DNA from: a virus
Lineage: Duplodnaviria > Heunggongvirae > Uroviricota > Caudoviricetes
Length of the DNA: 37,579 nt
Reading direction: 5' to 3' (one strand)
Virus record (IMG/VR): IMGVR_UViG_2541047812_000004
Location: 1-37,579 of that record
Shown here: positions 1 to 28,749 of the stretch, piece by piece
Numbering within the stretch: position 1 is the stretch's first letter
Layout of the letters: each line of letters begins with the position of its first letter
Translations under genes and position numbers: made by a program
Notes under the pieces: model-generated
The model's database searches: none
Told to the model about the DNA's origin: nothing
What the model saw: only the letters and a program-made list of their open reading frames with translations

Positions 1-1053
1 TTACGGGGTAATGCCAACCGCTGCCGCCACTTTGTCGCCACTTGGCAGCGTTGCCAGAGGATTGAAACGGAGCGCCGTTTCCAGATGATCCGGTGCCAGA
101 TGTGCGTAACGCATAGTCATTTTTATATCGTGGTGTCCGAGAATTTTTTGTAAGGCCAGAATGTTTCCACCCGACATCATGAAGTGCGCCGCAAACGTAT
201 GGCGCAGAACGTGTGTGAGTTGACCGCGAGGGAGCACGATAGACGTTTTTTCCATCACGGATAAAAATTGAAAATAGCAGTCTGTGAAGAAATTGAACCC
301 ATCAAGCGCCATGATCTCTTCGTAAAGCTCTTTACTGATAGGGATGCTTCTGTTTTTCTTCCCCTTCGTTCTCACAAAGGTGATTCGGTACTTGGTGACC
401 TGTGAGCGGGTAAGATTGATTGCTTCTCGCCAACGTGCGCCTGTACTTAGACATATTTTTACCACCAGTGCCAGAATTGGGTTCTGACGTTTGCAGTCAG
501 ACAGTAATTCGATGATCTGCTCATGTGTAAGCCATGCCATTTCCTTTTCTGCGATAGTGAATTTGCGCATCTTCTCTAATGGGTTTGGAAGTGTCCATTC
601 ACCCAGGCGGGAAAGTTCTCTGAAAACGCTGCTTAGATGGCTTTGCTCCAGGTTAACAGTAACTGGGCTTGCTCCTTTCTTCCATTTTTCACTGAAGTAG
701 ATTTCACCAGTAAGGCGTTTATCTCGATAGTGGGCAAACATTTTAGAGGTGAGATCGGTTGCAAGAGGATTGCCTAGAGCGTCAACCATCAGCAGCAATT
801 TGTCATAGACATGCTGTCCAGCAGTCAGAGATTTACCATGTAGTTTGAACCATAGCTCAACCACGTCTTTCAGGGTTCGACGATCCACTGATTCGCCCAG
901 CCAGGGCTTTGATTCGGTTTCTTCCATCGTGTGACGCTCAAAAGCCAGAGCTTCGCCTTTGGTGGCGAATTGTTTACGCACACGACGCCCACTTCGTCCG
1001 GCGGGGTAACATTCGCAAAGCCATTTCCCTGTGGTGAGTTTTCGTACTGCCAT
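1..1053 (-). CDS. int: Tyrosine integrase (P2 Int-like)
   Basis: Translation carries tyrosine-recombinase catalytic region (LSTGARWREA, HVLRHTFAAH, MTMRYAHL). Start placed at internal ATG 1053-1051 (MAVRKLTTGKW) rather than ORF-track start at 1209; stop at 1-3. Confidence 0.9.
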   Translation of the reverse strand: MAVRKLTTGKWLCECYPAGRSGRRVRKQFATKGEALAFERHTMEETESKPWLGESVDRRTLKDVVELWFKLHGKSLTAGQHVYDKLLLMVDALGNPLATDLTSKMFAHYRDKRLTGEIYFSEKWKKGASPVTVNLEQSHLSSVFRELSRLGEWTLPNPLEKMRKFTIAEKEMAWLTHEQIIELLSDCKRQNPILALVVKICLSTGARWREAINLTRSQVTKYRITFVRTKGKKNRSIPISKELYEEIMALDGFNFFTDCYFQFLSVMEKTSIVLPRGQLTHVLRHTFAAHFMMSGGNILALQKILGHHDIKMTMRYAHLAPDHLETALRFNPLATLPSGDKVAAAVGITP

Positions 1054-1241
1054 AAAAAATGCCCTCCAGTAGAGAGCATTTTTACTGTATATATAACCAG
1101 TGTCAATGTATGAAATCCTACGACCATACATCTCACTGAAGCCATAATGAAGTTGGCTATTCTTTTTGCTATGTGAGCATGTAACTTTTGCGGTTAACCT
1201 GCGGCTCATTTTTATTTTAGACGCAGATATAAAAACAAAAA

Positions 1242-8684: not shown

Positions 8685-10763
8685 ATGCTAATTTTAGAAA
8701 CAACATATAAGTTTTTATCCACCTCGTTAAGGCTTTCTATGAGCAGTTTCTTTTATATCCAGCCTGATTTAAAAAATGATACAAATGCTGATTTTTTGAA
8801 CTCTGTTGAAGAGTATGCAAATACTCATCAAATGCAGATTTATGCAATAATGAATCCCTTAGGGGAAAATAAATATAAATATAATAGAGACGATGTTCTT
8901 ATTATATTAAGCCCAGGATACCAATTAGCGTTCGTTGCTTTTAGTGATGATGTTGATGGTATACAAAATTTTATAGAGGATTTTATAGAGGATTTAGGTT
9001 CCTTATCAGATAAATACAATTATAAAGATACAATTGGTAGGCCTCGAGCGTGGAAAGATAAACTTGTTACTGAGTGCTCATACGCTGATTTTAGTTTCGG
9101 TAATCTTGATAAGTTTTTTGATGAAATTAAAATTATTGATGGTGTTCTGGCTAAAAAGAGTGAGTTAATTATCTCTCTCTTAACAGGAAGTATCAATAAT
9201 ATTGATAAAGTTAAAGGCAATGTGCCAGATAATATACTTGACAAGGTTAAGCAAAAGATAATTTTGTTTGACGGAGATCAGACAAGGTTTGTATACCAAA
9301 AATTTGATAAGAAAAAAGTTGTTATTCAAGGATTATCAGGTACTGGTAAGACTGAACTATTGCTTCATAAGTTAAAGGAAATATATTTGGATAAGGAGAA
9401 TTTAAATAGTAAAATAATGTTTACGTGCCATAATAAAATATTGGCAGACAATATGAGAAAGAGAATTCCAGAGTTTTTCAACTTTATGAAGGTCGAGCAG
9501 CAGATTAGCTGGAATGAAAGACTTTGGTGTGTTAATGCATGGGGTTCTCAATATGACGGTAACTCTGGCGCATATAGATATATATGTGAATATTATGGAT
9601 TAAGTTTCTATCGTTTTAGCTATGTGATGACTTTCGATAAAGTATGTAGAATTGCGTTGGATGAACTAAAAAAGTTGCCAAGCAATGAATTTAAGCATTG
9701 CTTTGACTTTATGTTAATAGATGAAAGTCAGGATTTCCCATCAAGCTTCATTGAGCTTTGCGAGCTGGTAACTCGTGATACTATTTATGTTGCTGGTGAT
9801 ATATTTCAAAGTATATTTGATACTAATATCTCTAATGAGATACAGCCAGACTTTCTTCTAAGTAAATGCTACCGAACAGATCCAAGGACATTGATGTTTG
9901 CTCATGGTTTAGGTATGGGGCTATTTGAAGAAGAACCATTAACTTGGTTAATGAATAATGAATGGGAAGCCTGCGGTTATATAGTTGATGAATCGGTAAA
10001 AGGTAAGTTAAGATTAAAGAGAGAGCCACTAAGAAGATTTGAAGATGTAACGGATGCAAAAATACATAGTGTGGAATTAATTAATTCCACATATGAAACT
10101 GAAGAAGAGAATATTTTGGGTATACTCCGTAAAATTAAGGAGGAGAATCCTACTGTTTTGGCTGATGATATTGGTATCATCTTTATTGATCAGGCTAAGA
10201 CTATATTTAAAATCGCAGACAGACTTGAATTGAGCGTGCCTAGATTATTAGGATGGAAGGTTAATAAGGCATATGAAACAAAAGAAAAAATTAAAGACAC
10301 GTTATTCATAAGTAATAAAAACCATGTAAAAGGGTTGGAGTTTCCTTTTGTTATCTGTGTTACTCGTGATATTATCAAGAGCCATTCTTATCGAAATTCA
10401 CTATATATGATGTTAACTCGTTCCTTTATTAAGTCATATTTGCTTCTGGGAGATGGGAATAAAGACTTACAGAATGAGATAGAAAAGGGGTTAGATGCTA
10501 TTAATGAGCATGGTTATATGGATATTAACGTTCCACCGAGAGAAGTCATTTCAAAAATAAGAACAACAATCAAATATGATGAGAAAAATATATCTCATTA
10601 TGATTTGGTTACAAAGGTCTTCGATGACTTACAGATTGAGCCGATATTTCGTACATCCCTGTATAATACAGTAAAAACAATCATGCCTGATTCTTTTGAT
10701 GTCGATAAAATTACTACTCTTGTTCGGTTCAACTATGAAATAATGCTTCAGGAGTCGAAGTGA
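8685..10763 (+). CDS. SF1 (UvrD/Rep-like) helicase-family P-loop NTPase with unknown ~200-aa N-terminal domain; candidate defence protein
   Basis: Helicase motifs read from translation: I GLSGTGKT, II FMLIDESQDF, III VAGDIFQSIF, IV CYRTDPRTL, VI VKGLEFPFVIC. AT-rich. Alternative start ATG 8739 (MSSFFY..., RBS TAAGG) may be the true start. Confidence 0.75.
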   Translation: MLILETTYKFLSTSLRLSMSSFFYIQPDLKNDTNADFLNSVEEYANTHQMQIYAIMNPLGENKYKYNRDDVLIILSPGYQLAFVAFSDDVDGIQNFIEDFIEDLGSLSDKYNYKDTIGRPRAWKDKLVTECSYADFSFGNLDKFFDEIKIIDGVLAKKSELIISLLTGSINNIDKVKGNVPDNILDKVKQKIILFDGDQTRFVYQKFDKKKVVIQGLSGTGKTELLLHKLKEIYLDKENLNSKIMFTCHNKILADNMRKRIPEFFNFMKVEQQISWNERLWCVNAWGSQYDGNSGAYRYICEYYGLSFYRFSYVMTFDKVCRIALDELKKLPSNEFKHCFDFMLIDESQDFPSSFIELCELVTRDTIYVAGDIFQSIFDTNISNEIQPDFLLSKCYRTDPRTLMFAHGLGMGLFEEEPLTWLMNNEWEACGYIVDESVKGKLRLKREPLRRFEDVTDAKIHSVELINSTYETEEENILGILRKIKEENPTVLADDIGIIFIDQAKTIFKIADRLELSVPRLLGWKVNKAYETKEKIKDTLFISNKNHVKGLEFPFVICVTRDIIKSHSYRNSLYMMLTRSFIKSYLLLGDGNKDLQNEIEKGLDAINEHGYMDINVPPREVISKIRTTIKYDEKNISHYDLVTKVFDDLQIEPIFRTSLYNTVKTIMPDSFDVDKITTLVRFNYEIMLQESK

Positions 10764-11389
10764 ATAAAGAGTATTATTTTAGTCTGGAGCAGGCTCAGTG
10801 TGACTGGGCCTTTAAGCCAATACGAACAAAGAAAGATGTTATTGAAATATTGATGAGATTAATCAAACTAATTTCTGTTTATACAGAACCATGCGAACAG
10901 AATGTGGTTGGGAGAGTGAAACTTCATATATCAAAGATGAGTCGAGTTTTCTTCTTTAGTGAAAATAAATATTATTCTCTTGCATTTCCTTTTTTTCTTG
11001 ATGAAATTAATGGTCAGATTTTATTTAGTAGTCCAGAAATGGAGTGTATAGATAGTTTTGTAACATCAAAAGTCATTTCTTTTATTAATGACTCCTCTTA
11101 TTTGAATAGTTCTTCTTGGGCCTTTTTTGAACCATTGTTAAATATTGAAGAACATCAAGGTATTCCCGGGTTTTGGCCTTTTCTTAGAATGTTGTTAACT
11201 TATGAGGATGGTTATATTAGATATGATGTCGATGAAGAAAGGGCTAATGGAAATCGTCATCCATTATATCATTTCGACGTCTTTTATTCTAATCCGCCAA
11301 CGTTTAAAATTGGTTTGAATGCACATTATACAAATGATGAAATGATTGATTTTCTTGATAGGGAAACTGATTGTCGTTATTTGAAATGA
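10760..11389 (+). CDS. Hypothetical protein (209 aa), partner of the helicase-like gene
   Basis: GTG start at 10760 overlaps upstream stop (GTGA) with AGGAG 5 nt upstream; translational coupling. AT-rich; no recognisable motif. Confidence 0.6.
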   Translation: MNKEYYFSLEQAQCDWAFKPIRTKKDVIEILMRLIKLISVYTEPCEQNVVGRVKLHISKMSRVFFFSENKYYSLAFPFFLDEINGQILFSSPEMECIDSFVTSKVISFINDSSYLNSSSWAFFEPLLNIEEHQGIPGFWPFLRMLLTYEDGYIRYDVDEERANGNRHPLYHFDVFYSNPPTFKIGLNAHYTNDEMIDFLDRETDCRYLK

Positions 11390-19853: not shown

Positions 19854-21608
19854 TCAATCCCAAAATAAATTATTATTAATATTGCTCATATCGAAAGTGA
19901 AGTTCTTTTCTGTAATAGTTTCGTACCTTTGTTCATAGATTATTTTTACATATCTAAACCCCTGTGTTACAGAGCGAATTTTTCGGGGTTTTGATGCAAG
20001 CATAACAAGTATTTCAAATACTTTATCAAGATAGTTGTGGGTGTGTTCAACTAAAAGGGGGGTAAATTTACCACCTTTTCCAGAATGGACTATGTTATTT
20101 CTTGTTCTATAAATTCTTCTGAGTTGCCATTCTAATCTTAACTTATGGTTATCTAAAGTTGATTTAATTGACTCCGGGGATGAAACTATGTTTTTTATAT
20201 ACTCGAAACGATCTGAAAGCAATGTGTAATCACGAAATTTAGCGGATAAAGATTCCCTTACTGATTCGTATTCAGGAAGAATCATTATATTGGCTAGTTT
20301 GTGTTTCGCTTTTGCTCCAGGTATTCCTTTTAAATGTGAGTTTAGTATGTGTCTATTCCATAACAGCAGGTCTCGGGTAAGGTTGTCAATTAAGGAGTCT
20401 ATATATGTAATATTCAGGAATGGAATTATACTTGCAGTAATATGTTCTATTGTTGCTTGATCCTTGGATTTAGTGTCTGTCGGCACTAATGATTCAAGAG
20501 CTATCCATAGATTTAAAAGCTGATTTTCAACATTTTCACTTTTTAATGCCATTGAATGTAATTGAATACTTCTCAAGAACTTGGCAAATGAACTATTTTC
20601 TAGAGAAAACTCAGACATCAATGATTCAAGACGTTTCTTGGCCTTTTCATGCTTTAAGTCCTTGCATTTTTTCATGGGGTTAAGTCTTTCAGCCACTTTC
20701 AAAGAGTCTGTATCAGTTATAACGAAAGCTTCATTTGACCAAGTAGGTTTATCTTTATGATGATAAATATTTAAAAAGGATGATGCTAATTTAAGTAGGT
20801 TTTCAGCATTCTCTCTTGCTGAATAAGAATCAAAAGCTTCTATATTTGATACGCAAACTATCTTCTTTCGTTGCAGATTTCTAAAAAAAACATGTTGGGA
20901 AAATTCTTCTGGTGGTTCTTTCTCAACAGACAAAGAGAGTCTTTCGAAAGTTGGCTCTGCGCCTAAAAACACTGGTTCAACAATAAAATATATTTTGTAT
21001 TTCTTTTTTTCGAGTTTTATTAAATCAAAAAAAGAAGAGACATCAGTGTTATTTGATATTTTATTATTCCCATAATAAAAAAATTGCTGGGTTAAATTCT
21101 TAAGATTATGTTGGCTAAAGCCAATGTAGAGTAATAAACTGATATAATTTCTTGTTAGCTTGCGTATGATGCTTCTTTCCCAGTTAGGGGATGATAACTC
21201 TTGGGTGATAAGTTCTTCACTTTTTTCTTTATATAATTTGGGTGGTAATTGAATGACCAGCATTTCAATTATTGAGCTTCTCTCTTTAGGGCTTATGTTA
21301 GTATTTTTTAGTTTGTTGAGAAAAGCTTGGTAAGCATCGCCTAATAAATCTTGTGCTACTTTATCACATGACAAGTTATGTATTAATTCTGCGGTTAAAT
21401 GTTCAATATTTTTAGGCTGAATAATACCATCCTCAACATCTTTAATTGTATTTAAAGTTTCTACTCCAATTGTTGGGGTATTCATCACTGAGGGTTTGTA
21501 TGTGTCCAGTGTATAGTCAAATAGCATTTCATCCAGTAATTGCGCAAAATATACTAGTGCTTTACAAGTGTCTGGGCAATCCCATTTATACAAAGAACGA
21601 AATTTCAT
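19854..21608 (-). CDS. Large AT-rich cargo protein (584 aa) with C-terminal HEPN-like Rx4-6H motif; candidate abortive-infection/defence protein
   Basis: Uninterrupted 584-codon ORF, ATG at 21608, opposite strand to flanking S and V, in the P2 orf30 position. C-terminal segment RRIYRTRNNIVHSG fits the HEPN Rx4-6H signature. Confidence 0.7.
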   Translation of the reverse strand: MKFRSLYKWDCPDTCKALVYFAQLLDEMLFDYTLDTYKPSVMNTPTIGVETLNTIKDVEDGIIQPKNIEHLTAELIHNLSCDKVAQDLLGDAYQAFLNKLKNTNISPKERSSIIEMLVIQLPPKLYKEKSEELITQELSSPNWERSIIRKLTRNYISLLLYIGFSQHNLKNLTQQFFYYGNNKISNNTDVSSFFDLIKLEKKKYKIYFIVEPVFLGAEPTFERLSLSVEKEPPEEFSQHVFFRNLQRKKIVCVSNIEAFDSYSARENAENLLKLASSFLNIYHHKDKPTWSNEAFVITDTDSLKVAERLNPMKKCKDLKHEKAKKRLESLMSEFSLENSSFAKFLRSIQLHSMALKSENVENQLLNLWIALESLVPTDTKSKDQATIEHITASIIPFLNITYIDSLIDNLTRDLLLWNRHILNSHLKGIPGAKAKHKLANIMILPEYESVRESLSAKFRDYTLLSDRFEYIKNIVSSPESIKSTLDNHKLRLEWQLRRIYRTRNNIVHSGKGGKFTPLLVEHTHNYLDKVFEILVMLASKPRKIRSVTQGFRYVKIIYEQRYETITEKNFTFDMSNINNNLFWD

Positions 21609-23518: not shown

Positions 23519-24116
23519 TCTGCTGCCACCGGGTTCAACACCACTGGAGCGCCGACTGGCACAAACCTGCAGCGGGATTTCTGATCTGCAGGTGCCGCTT
23601 CGTGACTTGTGGAATCCGGCAACCTGTCCGGTCAGTTTCCTGCCTTATCTCGCCTGGGCGTTCTCTGTGGATCGCTGGGACGAGGGCTGGACAGAAAGCG
23701 TCAAGCGCCAGGTGGTGAAGGATGCTTTTTATATTCATCAGCATAAAGGGACCACCAGTGCCGTGCGGCGGGTGGTGGAGCCGTTCGGCTTTCTGATCCG
23801 CATTATTGAGTGGTGGCAAACCGGAGAGGCACCGGGCACGTTTCGCCTGGATATCGGCGTGCAGGACCAGGGCATCACTGAAGATACCTATCTGGAACTT
23901 GAGCGACTGATAAGCGATGCCAAACCATGTAGCCGCCACATGATCGGCATGTCCATCAATCTGCAGACCAGCGGCCCGCATTGGGTGGGAGCCGCCAGCT
24001 ATCTTGGCGAAGAAATCACGATCTATCCGTATATCAACGAAACGATTATTTCCGGTGGCACCGCGCATGAAGGCGGGGCGGTCCATGTTATTGACACAAT
24101 GAGAGTGAATCCATGA
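23511..24116 (+). CDS. I: Baseplate protein (P2 gpI-like)
   Basis: Position between J and H; overlapping starts and stops. Confidence 0.8.
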   Translation: MNSLLPPGSTPLERRLAQTCSGISDLQVPLRDLWNPATCPVSFLPYLAWAFSVDRWDEGWTESVKRQVVKDAFYIHQHKGTTSAVRRVVEPFGFLIRIIEWWQTGEAPGTFRLDIGVQDQGITEDTYLELERLISDAKPCSRHMIGMSINLQTSGPHWVGAASYLGEEITIYPYINETIISGGTAHEGGAVHVIDTMRVNP

Positions 24117-25699
24117 GCACAAAATTTTATACCCTGCTAACGGATATTGGCGCGGCGAAACTTGCCAGCGCCGCCGCGCTCGGTGTGCCGCTAAAAATTA
24201 CCCATATGGCGGTGGGCGATGGCGGCGGAGTATTGCCAACGCCGGACGCCAAGCAGACGGCACTGGTAAATGAGAAACGCCGGGCTGCGCTGAATATGCT
24301 TTATATCGACCCGCAGAACAGTAGCCAGATTATTGCTGAACAGGTGATCCCTGAAAACGAGGGCGGTTGGTGGATACGTGAAGTGGGCCTGTTTGATGAG
24401 TCCGGGGCATTGATTGCCGTGGGAAACTGCCCGGAAAGCTATAAGCCGAAACTGGCTGAAGGCAGCGGGCGTACCCAGACCGTGCGCATGGTGCTGATTA
24501 CCAGCAGTACGGACAATATCATCCTGAAAATCGACCCTGCTGTAGTGCTGGCAACCCGTAAATACGTGGATGATAAAGTCCTGGAATTAAAGCTGTATGT
24601 GGATGACCAGATGAGAAACCACATTGCCGCACAAGATCCTCATACCCAGTATGCGCAGAAACATAATCCGACATTTACCGGAGAACCAAAAGCGCCGACG
24701 CCTGCAGCAGGAAATAACACCACTCGGATTGCGACCACAGAGTTTGTTCAGGCCGCTATTACTGCTCTGATTAACGGTGCGCCAGCCACGCTGGACACAC
24801 TGAAAGAAATTGCCGCAGCCATTAACAATGACCCGAAATTCAGTACCACTATTAATAATGCGCTGGCACTGAAAGCGCCGCTGTCGAGTCCGGCACTTAC
24901 TGGAACGCCAACAGCACCTACTGCGGCACAGTCGGTCAACAATACACAGATTGCCACTACGGCTTTTGTGAAATCGGCGATTGCAGGAATGGTGGGTTCT
25001 GCACCTGCGGCACTGGATACATTGAACGAACTGGCGGCGGCGCTGGGGAATGACCCGAACTTTGCCACGACAATGCTTAATGCACTGGCAGGTAAACAAC
25101 CGCTGGACAATACGCTGACTAATTTGAGTGGAAAGGATGTAGCTGGTCTTCTCACATACCTTGGTTTGGGAGAAGGCTCTGCATTACCGGTTGGGGTGCC
25201 TGTTCCGTGGCCTTCAGCCACTCCGCCAACAGGCTGGCTGAAATGCAATGGTGCGGCTTTTTCTGCTGAAGAATACCCGGAACTGGCAAAGGCTTACCCG
25301 ACCAATAAATTGCCTGATTTACGCGGTGAATTTATTCGTGGCTGGGATGATGGACGTGGAGTGGATGCGGGGCGAGCCTTGCTAAGTCTTCAGGATGACT
25401 CTTTTGAAGCTCACAGGCATGAGTCCTTTTTTTACGCGGGTATTTCACGCAATGAAACACCATTAAAAAATCTTCCAAGTTCAGACGAGATGCTGACTTT
25501 AAGTTCCACAACTAATGCCTTGTCCCCGGACAGTATTGATGCCACCAATTCGTTAATTGGTAATGATGATTACAACTGTCTGATTGAAGGAAATAAAAAT
25601 AACAAACGAACGGCAACGGGGTTGAGTACCAGTATTGTCGGTGCAGCAGAGACACGCCCACGTAATATTTCATTTAATTACATTGTGAGGGCTGCATGA
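24113..25699 (+). CDS. H: Tail fibre protein (P2 gpH-like), C-terminus inside an invertible segment
   Basis: Repeated fibre motifs (APATLDTLKEIAAAINNDP / APAALDTLNELAAALGNDP) and C-terminal LPDLRGEFIRGWDDGRGVD motif; the crossover site lies within the gene at 25149-25174. Confidence 0.85.
   Translation: MSTKFYTLLTDIGAAKLASAAALGVPLKITHMAVGDGGGVLPTPDAKQTALVNEKRRAALNMLYIDPQNSSQIIAEQVIPENEGGWWIREVGLFDESGALIAVGNCPESYKPKLAEGSGRTQTVRMVLITSSTDNIILKIDPAVVLATRKYVDDKVLELKLYVDDQMRNHIAAQDPHTQYAQKHNPTFTGEPKAPTPAAGNNTTRIATTEFVQAAITALINGAPATLDTLKEIAAAINNDPKFSTTINNALALKAPLSSPALTGTPTAPTAAQSVNNTQIATTAFVKSAIAGMVGSAPAALDTLNELAAALGNDPNFATTMLNALAGKQPLDNTLTNLSGKDVAGLLTYLGLGEGSALPVGVPVPWPSATPPTGWLKCNGAAFSAEEYPELAKAYPTNKLPDLRGEFIRGWDDGRGVDAGRALLSLQDDSFEAHRHESFFYAGISRNETPLKNLPSSDEMLTLSSTTNALSPDSIDATNSLIGNDDYNCLIEGNKNNKRTATGLSTSIVGAAETRPRNISFNYIVRAA
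25149..25174. repeat. hix/gix-like recombination site (left crossover site of invertible tail-fibre segment)
   Basis: ttctcacatacc-tt-ggtttgggagaa; 26-bp site with imperfect dyad symmetry; its right half is the exact reverse complement of the left half of the site at 26787-26812. Confidence 0.65.
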
Positions 25700-26304
25700 T
25701 GTATAACGCCATCTTAAATAATAAATTTATTGCCACAAAGGCAGGAGAGATTACCGTTTATAACTATGACAGTGAGACACGGGAGTATATTTCTGCATCA
25801 ATTGAATATCTTGCTGTGGGTGTCGGTATCCCCGCATATTCCTGTTTAGATGCTCCTGGCACACATAAGGATGGTTATGCAATCTGCCGTTCGGCAGATT
25901 TTAACTCATGGGAATATGTGCCAGACCATCGCGGTGAAGTTGTCTATAACACCGAAACGGGAGAATCAAAAGAAATCACAGCTCCGGGGGATTACCCTGA
26001 TAATACAACCACTATCGCCCCGTTAACGCTATACGATAAATGGGATGGTGAGAAATGGGTGACGGATACCGAGGCACAGCATAGCGCCGCAGTAGATGCA
26101 GCAGAAGCACAGCGCCAGTCGCTGATGGATACTGCAATGGCTTCCATCAATCTGATTCAACTGAAATTACAGGCCGGACGGAGTCTGACGCAGGCAGAAA
26201 CCAACCGACTTAACACGGTGCTGAATTACATTGACGCAGTGACGGCAACAGATACCAGCACCGCGCCTGATATTATTTGGCCTGTATTCCCTGAGACTGA
26301 TTAA
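25696..26304 (+). CDS. G: Tail fibre assembly protein (P2 gpG-like)
   Basis: Tfa-type N-terminus (MMYNAILNNKFI...) and C-terminal WPVFP; overlaps H stop. Confidence 0.8.
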   Translation: MMYNAILNNKFIATKAGEITVYNYDSETREYISASIEYLAVGVGIPAYSCLDAPGTHKDGYAICRSADFNSWEYVPDHRGEVVYNTETGESKEITAPGDYPDNTTTIAPLTLYDKWDGEKWVTDTEAQHSAAVDAAEAQRQSLMDTAMASINLIQLKLQAGRSLTQAETNRLNTVLNYIDAVTATDTSTAPDIIWPVFPETD

Positions 26305-26533
26305 CCTCAATTAGTATTGGTTCGCCTTTCTCATTAATTGTTAGCTCCATGCCCTGAGGAATTTCTGTAATAGTAAAAAACCAGTTGTCCTCCGGTAATT
26401 CAATAGCCCCGGTCACGTCATGAAGACCGGGGATTACTTCAGTCAAAGTAACTGGATTAAACAGGCGCACAATAAACCCTCCAGGAAAAAGCATTTGATG
26501 ATGGTCTGCCGTCGTACATCTGGCAGCGGGCAT
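26273..26533 (-). CDS. Possible alternative tail-fibre assembly gene (inverted cassette, may be truncated)
   Basis: Convergent with G, overlapping at the 3' ends, inside the invertible segment; only 86 aa and it overlaps the alternative fibre cassette, so integrity is doubtful. Confidence 0.35.
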   Translation of the reverse strand: MPAARCTTADHHQMLFPGGFIVRLFNPVTLTEVIPGLHDVTGAIELPEDNWFFTITEIPQGMELTINEKGEPILIEVNQSQGIQAK

Positions 26534-26786
26534 AAAAGCCGGTATTTGTTACCTGATCATCCACGATCATTGAAACGTGAACATTATTAGGTGTGCTCTC
26601 GTAATCCGTTCTTATTCTTTCCGCGATACTGATAAAACGTGAAAGTTTAGGCAGTGCAATTGGGTAAACAACTTTAGCCAGTCCATTATCATTAGATCCA
26701 CCGGTTCCAAATACTTCTATTGCACCATCTGACCAGCGTATCCATGCACCATTGGCATTAGCTCCTCGCTGAATGACATATCTGGC
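26457..26786 (-). other. Alternative tail-fibre C-terminal cassette (promoterless, fused to H only after inversion)
   Basis: Minus-strand frame reads through the right crossover site (FLNVGLGE...) and continues about 110 codons; it shares the LGLGE junction with H at the left site; no independent RBS or start expected. Confidence 0.55.
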
Positions 26787-26812
26787 TTCTCCCAAACCAA
26801 CGTTTAAGAAAA
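26787..26812. repeat. hix/gix-like recombination site (right crossover site)
   Basis: ttctcccaaacc-aa-cgtttaagaaaa; inverted relative to the site at 25149-25174 (shared 12-bp half-site ggtttgggagaa on opposite strands). Confidence 0.65.
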
Positions 26813-26867
26813 TGCAGCGATTACGACTAACTGGCATCATCCCCGATTTTTATTCAAGGAGATGATC

Positions 26868-27434
26868 ATGCTTATTGGTTATGTACGCGTGTCAACAAAT
26901 GACCAGAACACCGATTTGCAACGTAATGCACTGAATTGCGCGGGATGTGAGCGGATTTTTGAGGACAAAATCAGTGGCACTAAGTCCGACAGACCGGGGC
27001 TTAAAAAACTGCTTAGGACACTATCGGCAGGAGACACTCTGGTTGTCTGGAAGCTGGACAGGTTGGGGCGCAGTATGCGGCATCTTGTTACGCTGATAGA
27101 AGAGTTGCGCCAGCGTGGTGTGAATTTCCGAAGCCTGACTGACAGTATTGATACCAGCACCCCAATGGGCCGTTTCTTTTTTCATGTCATGGGGGCCTTG
27201 GCTGAAATGGAACGCGAACTGATAGTTGAACGTACCAGGGCAGGGCTGGCTGCAGCTCGTGTTAAAGGCAGAGTAGGTGGACGCCGTCCTAAGTTGACCA
27301 GCGAACAGTGGGCACAGATTGGGCGTTTACTCGAGGCCGGAGAATCAAGACAGCGTATTGCACTGATTTTTGATGTGGGCGTTTCTACCATTTATCGAAA
27401 ATTTCCGGCAAATAAGAGCAATGAATCTCCCTGA
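26868..27434 (+). CDS. Serine recombinase DNA invertase (Pin/Gin/Hin/Cin family)
   Basis: MLIGYVRVSTNDQNTDLQRNAL... with catalytic Ser in YVRVST is very similar to recalled e14 Pin; C-terminal HTH. Start at ATG 26868 with AAGGAG RBS. Confidence 0.9.
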   Translation: MLIGYVRVSTNDQNTDLQRNALNCAGCERIFEDKISGTKSDRPGLKKLLRTLSAGDTLVVWKLDRLGRSMRHLVTLIEELRQRGVNFRSLTDSIDTSTPMGRFFFHVMGALAEMERELIVERTRAGLAAARVKGRVGGRRPKLTSEQWAQIGRLLEAGESRQRIALIFDVGVSTIYRKFPANKSNESP

Positions 27435-27482
27435 ATCAGCTTTATTTTGATTATCCCTGAGAGCAGATAAATACCGTCATTT

Positions 27483-27500
27483 TGTGTGAATAACGGTACA
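27483..27500. promoter_or_regulatory. Ogr-type late promoter activator site (TGT-N12-ACA) upstream of FI
   Basis: tgtgtgaataacggtaca = TGT-N12-ACA, about 77 bp upstream of the FI ATG. Confidence 0.55.
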
Positions 27501-27576
27501 ACTGCGCTTAGCTGTTTGTCAGGCACAATCACTTCAACATAGGGCGAAGCCTAATCCAATCAGGAGGTTCGCCACT

Positions 27577-28749
27577 ATGGCTCAGGATTACCACCACGGG
27601 GTGCGCGTTGTTGAAGTCAACGAAGGCACCCGATCCATTACCACGGTGAGCACCGCCATCGTGGGTATGGTCTGCACGGGCGATGATGCCGATGCAAAAA
27701 TGTTTCCTCTTAATAAACCCGTGCTGATCACTGATGTGCTGACTGCCAGCGGTAAAGCGGGTGAGTCCGGTACGCTGGCCCGTTCGCTGGACGCCATCGC
27801 TGACCAGGCAAAACCCGTGACCGTTGTTGTGCGTGTGCCGCAGGGTGAAACGGAAGAAGAAACCACGACCAATATCATCGGAGCAGTGACCGCTGAAGGT
27901 AAAAAAACAGGCATGAAAGCCCTGTTATCTGCCCAGTCACAGCTCGGCGTTAAACCGCGCATTCTCGGCGTGCCAGGTCACGACACGAAGGCGGTAGCTA
28001 CTGAGTTGCTGAGCGTGGCGCAAAGCCTGCGTGGGTTTGCTTACCTGTCAGCGTATGGTTGCAAGACGGTGCAGGAAGCAATCACTTACCGTGAAAACTT
28101 CAGTCAGCGTGAAGGAATGCTGATCTGGCCCGACTTTACTGGCTGGGACACGGTGCTGAATGCCGAAGCAACGGCTTATGCCACCGCCCGTGCGCTCGGT
28201 CTGCGCGCCAAAATTGATGAGCAGACCGGATGGCACAAAAGCCTGTCCAACGTGGGCGTGAACGGTGTCACCGGAATTTCTGCTGATGTGTTCTGGGATC
28301 TGCAGGACCCGGCAACCGATGCAGGTCTGCTGAACCAGAACGACGTCACCACGCTTGTGCGCAAGGATGGTTTCCGCTTCTGGGGTTCCCGCTGTCTGAG
28401 CGATGATCCGCTTTTTGCTTTCGAAAACTACACCCGCACGGCGCAGGTGCTGACGGACACAATGGCAGAAGCGCACATGTGGGCGGTGGACAAACCGCTG
28501 AACCCGTCGCTGGCGCGCGACATTATCGAAGGTATCCGCGCCAAAATGCGCAGCCTGGTCAGTCAGGGCTATCTCATTGGTGGTGATTGCTGGCTGGACG
28601 AGTCGGTGAACGATAAAGACACGCTGAAAGCCGGGAAGCTCACCATCGACTACGACTACACGCCAGTGCCGCCACTTGAAAACCTGATGCTGCGTCAGCG
28701 CATCACCGATCAGTACCTGGTGAATTTCTCCAGCCAGGTCAGCGCGTAA
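27577..28749 (+). CDS. FI: Tail sheath protein (P2 gpFI-like)
   Basis: 390 aa; AGGAGG RBS; order FI-FII-E-T. Confidence 0.9.

Follow-up and report, generated by a model that had tools for sequence, protein, structure and literature searches.

A probable two-state Pin-type tail-fibre switch in a P2-like Escherichia coli prophage, with a compact second tip and a 65-residue putative helper

In the virus sequence IMGVR_UViG_2541047812_000004 of IMG/VR, a serine DNA invertase gene lies downstream of tail-fibre gene H, and a second, silent set of fibre sequences is encoded on the opposite strand between the two genes. The whole 37,579-nucleotide (nt) stretch, hereafter called the window, corresponds to a P2-like prophage of E. 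coli, as judged from the order of its open reading frames (ORFs) and from the neighbouring genes. The locus raises the question of whether both sets of fibre sequences belong to a working switch, or whether one of them is a remnant. The evidence assembled here makes it very probable that the locus is a two-state switch operated by a Pin-family serine invertase, which exchanges the tip of the tail fibre.

In the proposed mechanism, the invertase would bind both of the 26-base-pair (bp) crossover sites that flank the segment. On the model of Gin, Cin, Hin and Pin, it would probably also depend on Fis bound to an enhancer within the 5' portion of its own gene. The DNA would be cut at the central TT/AA dinucleotides (25161/62 and 26799/800), and the intervening 1,638 bp would be inverted. 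The constant part of H, comprising 350 N-terminal residues and expressed from the late operon, would be joined to either of two tips. In state A, which is the state of the window, this would be a StfE-like Collar tip of 175 residues, followed by a classical Tfa protein of 202 amino acids (aa). In state B, it would be a Gp53-like tip of 110 residues, followed by a translationally coupled 65-aa protein. A lysogen population would yield virions with two receptor-binding tips, and the switch could serve as host-range bet-hedging, as do the G segment of Mu, the C segment of P1 and the P segment of e14. The features involved are listed in Table 1.

Table 1. Features of the putative invertible tail-fibre locus and its flanks, in window coordinates
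Feature	Position	Strand	Description
Constant part of fibre gene H	24113-25161	+	About 350 N-terminal residues; Phage_tail_fib domain and shaft repeats; ends at the ...LGLGE junction motif
Left crossover site (pix/cix-like, 26 bp)	25149-25174	+	Inside H; central TT at 25161-25162
Invertible segment (predicted)	25162-26799		1,638 bp, bounded by the two central dinucleotides
Tip cassette A	25162-25699	+	175 C-terminal residues of H; Collar domain; StfE-like; expressed in the window orientation
Cassette A tail-fibre assembly gene	25696-26304	+	202 aa; TfaE-like; Caudo_TAP
Small ORF of cassette B	26273-26470	-	65 aa; GTG start at 26470, stop at 26273; GGAGG 7 nt upstream
Tip cassette B	26457-26799	-	110 alternative C-terminal residues for H; divergent Gp53-like_C; silent in the window orientation
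Right crossover site (26 bp)	26787-26812	+	Central AA at 26799-26800
Serine DNA invertase	26868-27434	+	188 aa; Ser9; resolvase catalytic domain and HTH_7; alternative upstream ATG at 26862
Probable Fis-dependent recombinational enhancer	26886-26957	+	Invertase gene nt 19-90; placed by alignment with P1 cin
Integrase	1-1209		Left end of the prophage
Sheath gene FI	27577-28749		3' of the invertase gene; followed by tube, tape measure, D, ogr and host ybjL

The invertase gene encodes an intact protein, in which the catalytic Ser9 and the ...GYVRVSTNDQ... and KLDRLGRS motifs are kept. It has the domain build of the Hin, Gin, Cin and Pin enzymes, in which a catalytic domain with a serine near residue 9-10 is combined with a helix-turn-helix domain in a protein of about 185-195 aa (Pfam Resolvase, E = 1.7e-52; HTH_7, E = 5.8e-16). 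The protein aligns over its full length with the sequences of the Gin structures 3UJ3 and 4M6F (8e-93), and it shares 84.8% identity with PinE, 77.4% with Cin and 73.9% with Gin. A first-pass annotation of the window had proposed a Pin/Gin-type invertible tail-fibre segment with hix- or pix-like sites beside this gene, and the comparison agrees with that proposal.

An enhancer is probably present within the 5' part of the invertase gene. In the annotation of P1, the element occupies nt 19-90 of cin. Because the window gene can be aligned without gaps to pinE, gin and cin at its 5' end, over a stretch that covers the annotated cin enhancer, the corresponding position in the window can be assigned. 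The first 150 nt of the window gene are 70-73% identical to gin and cin, and 15-mers of the form G-N13-C occur at the same offsets as in gin (nt 22 and 71).

Two 26-bp inverted sites had also been proposed in the first-pass annotation, and their coordinates prove to be exact. They form the top-ranked inverted pair in the region in a repeat search (27 nt, 81% complementary, 1,610 nt apart). Each site is an imperfect dyad. The left site reads TTCTCACATACC-TT-GGTTTGGGAGAA, and the reverse complement of the right site reads TTTTCTTAAACG-TT-GGTTTGGGAGAA. Because the central dinucleotides on the plus strand are TT on the left and AA on the right, the sites are inverted with matching cores. The half-sites that face into the segment are identical (TTCTCCCAAACC). 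The exact stretch common to both sites is TTGGTTTGGGAGAA; a shared identical core is thus present as claimed, and its length is 14 bp, not 12 bp. The shared core TTGGTTTGGGAGAAGG has been published as the inverted repeat that bounds the P segment of e14, a segment inverted experimentally by PinE, PinQ and PinR (PMC12529663). The palindromic invertase-site pattern TTCTCNNAAACCNNGGTTTNNGAGAA, with at most three mismatches allowed, has no match in the 37.6 kb other than these two sites and 0 matches in 100 shuffles, but the pattern was drawn up after inspection of P1 cixL and of these sites, and is not an independent test. A search of the window for extra crossover sites, as expected of a shufflon-like multi-state system, found none. 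In relatives with swapped orientation, the strand changes within a few bases of 25161.

The left site is located inside H (ORF 24113-25699, 528 aa; Phage_tail_fib, E = 1.3e-63), and the reading frames across the two sites correspond. The minus-strand frame across the right site encodes ...FLNVGLGEARY..., which matches ...LTYLGLGEGSA... in H at the left site, and these frames read as the first-pass annotation had claimed. The site would therefore join the constant N-terminal part in frame to either of two C-termini. When 25162-26799 is inverted in silico, an open, in-frame H' of 463 aa replaces the 528-aa H and retains the constant part. A fused tail protein of 463 aa is annotated in genomes that hold the flipped form, in keeping with the expectation that some 175 C-terminal residues of H would be swapped for about 110. 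The open frame of tip B continues beyond the segment to ATG 26840/26837.

The two tips have little in common. Tip A matches the Collar domain (E = 4.8e-15) and is 88% identical in nucleotide sequence to e14 stfE, and the Tfa gene that follows it matches Caudo_TAP (E = 2.4e-31) and is 87% identical to e14 tfaE. Tip B belongs to a family in which 15 of the 17 members match the Gp53-like_C model (PF21882; best E = 4.2e-5). A profile of tip B compared with Protein Data Bank (PDB) sequences found nothing beyond a lectin match that was weak and partial and a match to R2-pyocin with E = 0.8. Because the Collar-type and Gp53-like tips are unrelated, they likely bind different receptors. RefSeq labels both the silent tip (126-127 aa) and the 65-aa ORF as "hypothetical protein", and a literature search by the RefSeq accessions of both proteins returned no papers.

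Several independent lines of genome data indicate that near-identical relatives of this segment do flip, and that both orientations are apparently present within single sequenced cultures. Of the complete E. coli genomes, 40 match the window orientation with a coverage of at least 80%, and 26 match a construct flipped in silico. The best matches to the flipped construct are in a single piece, are 98.8-99.3% identical and span both predicted junctions. In the record of E. coli NCTC8623 (NZ_LR134234.1), the first and last 22.65 kb represent the same prophage and are 99.6-99.8% identical, and the copies differ only by inversion of 1,643 bp, corresponding to window 25161-26803. The start copy is full of frameshift errors, which have led to many false pseudogenes in RefSeq. 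Near-identical record ends with a frameshift-ridden start copy are the signature of an untrimmed circular overlap, which would mean that one assembly holds both orientations.

Short-read assemblies add a different kind of observation. Contig L033 of E. coli (1,640 bp, 98.1% identity) corresponds exactly to window 25161-26800, with a 14-bp core at either end. A 14-bp inverted repeat alone is too short to break an assembly, so a contig that breaks exactly at the crossover points would imply that reads of both orientations were present. Contigs of Xenorhabdus, Hafnia, Intestinirhabdus and Pantoea that bear the small ORF likewise start and end at inverted AAACCNNGGTTT cores, and two samples contain contigs of equal size (34,013 bp) in which the module points in opposite directions. 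That different orientations of P2-like prophage segments coexist in E. coli cultures has been demonstrated experimentally (PMC4272514). By extension from these relatives, we infer that the copy in the window flips as well.

Two further observations concern the distribution of the segment. Collection-wide, the commonest variant of the 65-aa protein (P0003) is found only on contigs shorter than 2 kb in 1,077 of 2,928 blocks; this is consistent with a segment that assembles alone, as a count that is not normalised to the generally short contigs of the collection. In Xenorhabdus khoisanae (JAQRFL010000019.1, 38718-46897), both cassettes are present in the B state without an adjacent invertase gene, and a 266-aa Tad2-like/DUF7823 gene occupies the expected place. 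The site-to-site short contigs of Xenorhabdus suggest that the segment flips there too, perhaps by means of an invertase encoded elsewhere.

Some observations weigh against a working switch, or against parts of the picture given above. The window copy itself is represented in one orientation only, state A. The duplicate in NCTC8623 could in principle be a real tandem duplication. Two E. coli relatives are decaying: JX21CE33 is in the B state and has a frameshifted invertase gene, and 806883-11-2019 has frameshifts in both the fibre gene and cassette B. The outer half of the left site, TTCTCACATACC, strays further from the consensus than does its e14 counterpart, and the putative enhancer is placed by alignment. 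For tip B, the window copy scores 18.4-18.9 bits against Gp53-like_C (E = 0.002-0.003), which is below the Pfam gathering threshold of 24.9 bits, and its structure model (predicted local distance difference test score, pLDDT, 59.3) is too poor to confirm a fold. The AlphaFold model of the 65-aa protein is all-beta but likewise too poor for this purpose (pLDDT 70.8), and a Foldseek search with it against PDB found nothing below E = 0.88, a result that neither shows nor excludes likeness to the N-terminal domain of Mu Tfa.

The small ORF of cassette B bears most directly on whether state B is functional. The first-pass annotation had taken it to be an alternative assembly gene of 86 aa (26273-26533). 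We rejected this reading from ATG 26533, in which the extra 21 N-terminal residues are unconserved and lie inside the tip gene in another frame. The 65-aa form is the one annotated in RefSeq for the same coding sequence, and its homologues all begin MRLFNP. The start of the ORF overlaps the end of the tip B gene by 14 nt, and this overlap with the fibre stop codon is kept in all loci examined in Escherichia, Hafnia, Xenorhabdus and Erwinia; the GGAGG upstream of the start is conserved too. This Shine-Dalgarno sequence (window 26470-26490, minus strand) is encoded within the conserved ...FSWRVY... motif that ends tip B. At its 3' end, the ORF overlaps the convergent Tfa gene by 32 nt in the window. 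The overlap is 20-32 nt in most loci, and there is therefore no space for a terminator between the two genes.

The small ORF represents a conserved family of 118 clusters, 57-91 aa in length, that is distributed over at least 10 genera of Enterobacterales and extends down to 59% identity; one cluster alone is on 997 contigs. In the family alignment, about the first 54 residues are strongly conserved and the last 5-12 are variable, and in all 118 clusters the short form ends just past the same domain boundary. Comparison of homologous sequences shows cassette B to be under purifying selection in both of its parts. The pairwise ratio of nonsynonymous to synonymous substitution rates (dN/dS) is about 0.15-0.4 for the tip and about 0.1-0.3 for the small ORF, with dS near saturation in both. 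In a P2-like prophage of Erwinia sp. 9145, a 387-aa fibre with a B-type tip is followed by a 62-aa ORF and then directly by the sheath gene. Because there is no invertase gene, second cassette or Caudo_TAP gene at this locus, tip B and the small ORF are the sole fibre module, and the cassette appears to be self-sufficient there. The same locus (JQNE01000001.1, 327015-335203) carries a large AAA_15/SMC_N-like ORF upstream of gene V.

The function of the 65-aa protein can be approached through longer relatives. When 1.84 billion representative proteins were searched with a profile of the family, the short family itself was recovered, together with proteins of 105-180 aa that are matched at residues 1 to about 58. 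The C-terminal parts of these longer proteins belong to Caudo_TAP (P0165, P0176 and P0188, with profile E-values of 8.5e-12, 1.7e-6 and 1.8e-4), Phage_tail_APC (P0173 and P0174) or DUF4376 (P0187). One protein with this two-part build is gene_1 of Cronobacter phage JK004 (128 aa), which comes after a tip-like ORF of 119 aa. The 65-aa protein stops at the boundary where JK004 gene_1 runs on into a conserved C-terminal domain. In Tfa-type chaperones, a variable N-terminal beta domain binds the fibre tip and a conserved helical C-terminal domain trimerises (PMC9608196). The small ORF has the first of these domains and lies directly after the fibre gene, but neither its 65-aa nor its 86-aa form matches Caudo_TAP (PF02413; C-terminal ...W..YR..L.RVD...P.WP..P). 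Because the conserved C-terminal domain is unmatched, the protein is not filed as a member of that family. The profile also found only chance-level matches among PDB sequences. The 65-aa protein thus corresponds, as a stand-alone homologue, to the fibre-binding N-domain of modular tail-fibre chaperones, and we infer that tip B is served by it as a minimal chaperone or as a cap that is retained. The earlier claim that inversion exchanges assembly genes holds only in a loose sense; the second gene is not a Tfa of the Caudo_TAP type, but a homologue of the N-domain only.

The length of this second helper gene, which is far below that of a normal Tfa, could also be taken as a sign that the switch is frozen or half dead. 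Only cassette A would then work, cassette B would be a decaying remnant, and inversion would give fibreless or inert particles. The first-pass annotation had similarly regarded the alternative orientation as partly decayed. The missing Caudo_TAP match and the absence of the C-terminal domain seen in JK004 gene_1 would fit such decay, as would the 3' overlap of the convergent genes, which a deletion could have produced. However, the short form is the rule throughout the family, the low dN/dS of the small ORF and the conserved 14-nt overlap and GGAGG indicate that it is maintained, and a cassette of this type serves as the only fibre module in the Erwinia prophage. The flipped state is also about as common as the unflipped one in complete E. 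coli genomes (26 versus 40). Decay is thus a most improbable explanation. It is also unlikely, if slightly less so, that the segment additionally or mainly protects the host from other phages in an inversion-regulated way, in parallel to StfE2 of e14. That protein consists of a short leader and a gp53-like domain, is made after inversion and is reported to lower adsorption of T2 (PMC12529663). A 127-aa ORF (26457-26840) that is open in the window orientation has the same build, with a 17-residue leader from the spacer joined to tip B. In the spacer beside the invertase gene, the leader MPFACYFFIFINVGLGE of e14 stfE and the leader MMPVSRNRCIFLNVGLGE of the window form equivalent starts of their ORFs, and host Pin enzymes use the same core site and could therefore flip the segment in trans. 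Nevertheless, the scan of 24000-27700 revealed no minus-strand promoter-like site upstream of this ORF, no clear ribosome-binding site precedes its ATG, and tip B is unlike the StfP tip of e14 in sequence. The cassette is conserved in the role of a fibre C-terminus, and flipped genomes carry it fused to full-length H. A prophage that looks complete and whose fibre gene is intact in both states is enough to explain the switch.

With the exchange of fibre tips as the preferred reading, a separate question is what the 65-aa protein does in state B. Instead of a chaperone, it might be a structural component, namely a distal cap or adhesin that is kept on the virion and aids receptor binding. Mu Tfa is reported to remain attached to the finished fibre by its N-terminal domain and to take part in recognising the host (PMC9608196), and the small ORF keeps only this domain. 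In addition, the small ORF is more conserved than its tip in a comparison with phage S164 (66% versus 36% identity). Such a structural role is possible on these grounds, though less likely than not. More generally, the protein may be the first example of a widespread class in which tail-fibre chaperones or caps consist of a stand-alone N-domain only, a proposal that we regard as tentative and a little short of probable. If it is correct, the helical C-terminal domain of Tfa, which is thought to drive trimer initiation, would be dispensable for small Gp53-like tips. The fibre-binding N-domain would also be an independently mobile module, which occurs elsewhere fused to Caudo_TAP, Phage_tail_APC or DUF4376.

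These findings leave the understanding of serine-invertase switches unchanged, but they affect how such loci are annotated and used. The silent tip and the 65-aa ORF appear to be the second half of a phase-variable tail fibre, which the label "hypothetical" misses, and such prophages should be described with two alleles of the fibre gene. The switch would also explain why short-read assemblies break into contigs of about 1.6 kb at the locus. Cassette B is a very compact putative receptor-binding module, with 110 residues, a 65-aa helper and a conserved ...GLGE junction, and it could conveniently be swapped in where P2-type phages or tailocins are to be retargeted. Whether Tfa chaperones need their conserved C-terminal domain could also be tested on this naturally occurring cassette. 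We found no description of an N-domain-only helper paired with a compact tip; this one mildly novel point is of moderate interest for the study and engineering of tail fibres.

The surrounding prophage is apparently complete. It extends from the integrase gene to ogr, which the host gene ybjL adjoins. Downstream of the integrase gene are replication genes, portal and terminase genes, head genes, lysis and tail genes, V-W-J-I-H-G and the invertase gene. The invertase gene and the second cassette are located after the fibre-assembly gene and before the sheath gene, a slot that is often taken by a DNA invertase gene in P2-like phages (preprint, bioRxiv 10.1101/2024.10.15.618418). A scan of 24000-27700 for promoters and terminators found nothing that exceeds shuffle expectation. 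Two other places in the prophage carry possible cargo. A 584-aa ORF (19854-21608, minus strand), located between the tail-completion genes and baseplate gene V at the position of orf30 in P2, has no Pfam match but is matched by the PADLOC model for ApeA (E = 1.4e-13), and is likely an anti-phage defence gene. Where P2 has old/tin, in the interval from the replication gene to the portal gene, the window has a two-gene insert (8685-11389, plus strand) that may be a defence system. It encodes a UvrD-like helicase of 692 aa (PADLOC "Helicase", 2.9e-28; Pfam UvrD_C_2 and AAA_19) and a 209-aa protein that has no matches. The relative in NCTC8623 has a retron Ec67-type reverse transcriptase in place of this pair.

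Among known systems, the P segment of e14 in E. coli K-12 (stfP-tfaP / tfaE-stfE-pinE) is the closest in its sites, its enzyme and one of its cassettes. A comparison with e14 had been proposed in the first-pass annotation. When it was made, the same 14-16-bp crossover core was found, and the right site of the window was identical at 25 of 26 positions to the e14 site beside pinE. The layout is also the same, with a site inside the fibre gene, two convergent cassettes of tip and helper, and the invertase gene immediately downstream; the resemblance of the invertase and of cassette A to their e14 counterparts (84.8% identity for the protein and 87-88% for the DNA) has been described above. However, e14 is a defective lambdoid remnant, whereas the prophage in the window is apparently complete, and the stfE/tfaE-like cassette is the expressed one in the window, unlike in e14. 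The second cassettes also differ, since the StfP tip and 137-aa TfaP of e14 are replaced here by a shorter Gp53-like tip and a 65-aa, N-domain-only helper.

The G segment of Mu with Gin and the C segment of P1 with Cin share a serine invertase that is 74-77% identical to that of the window, 26-bp dyad sites of the AAACCNNGGTTT type, a 5' end of the invertase gene that aligns without gaps with the cin enhancer region, and alternative fibre C-termini with alternative helper genes. At 1.6 kb, the window segment is about half the size of those segments (3 kb in Mu and 4.2 kb in P1). Unlike the sites of Mu and P1, its sites are not embedded in longer inverted repeats, and its cassettes are unequal in type and size, with one helper that lacks the conserved C-terminal domain of Tfa. 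For this helper, the nearest comparison is with modular Tfa proteins (Mu Tfa, PDB 5YVQ; Pam3 gp25). Short Tfa-like proteins have an N-terminal domain that is matched by the 65-aa protein, whose gene directly follows the fibre gene, as Tfa genes do. In contrast to modular Tfa proteins, the 65-aa protein has no C-terminal helical domain and no Caudo_TAP match, and neither sequence nor fold searches revealed similarity to the solved Mu Tfa.

The P2-like prophages of enteropathogenic E. coli (EPEC) E2348/69 (Goldberg et al. 2014, PMC4272514) are of the same phage type, and their invertase gene is likewise located between the fibre genes and the sheath gene. Sequencing and polymerase chain reaction (PCR) demonstrated that orientations coexist in the population of these prophages (PMC4272514). 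One of them is a three-site, four-state system, whereas the window has two sites only. The mechanism and family of the window segment are those of the known Pin-type invertible fibre segments, and its setting is closest to that of the invertible segments already reported in P2-like prophages.

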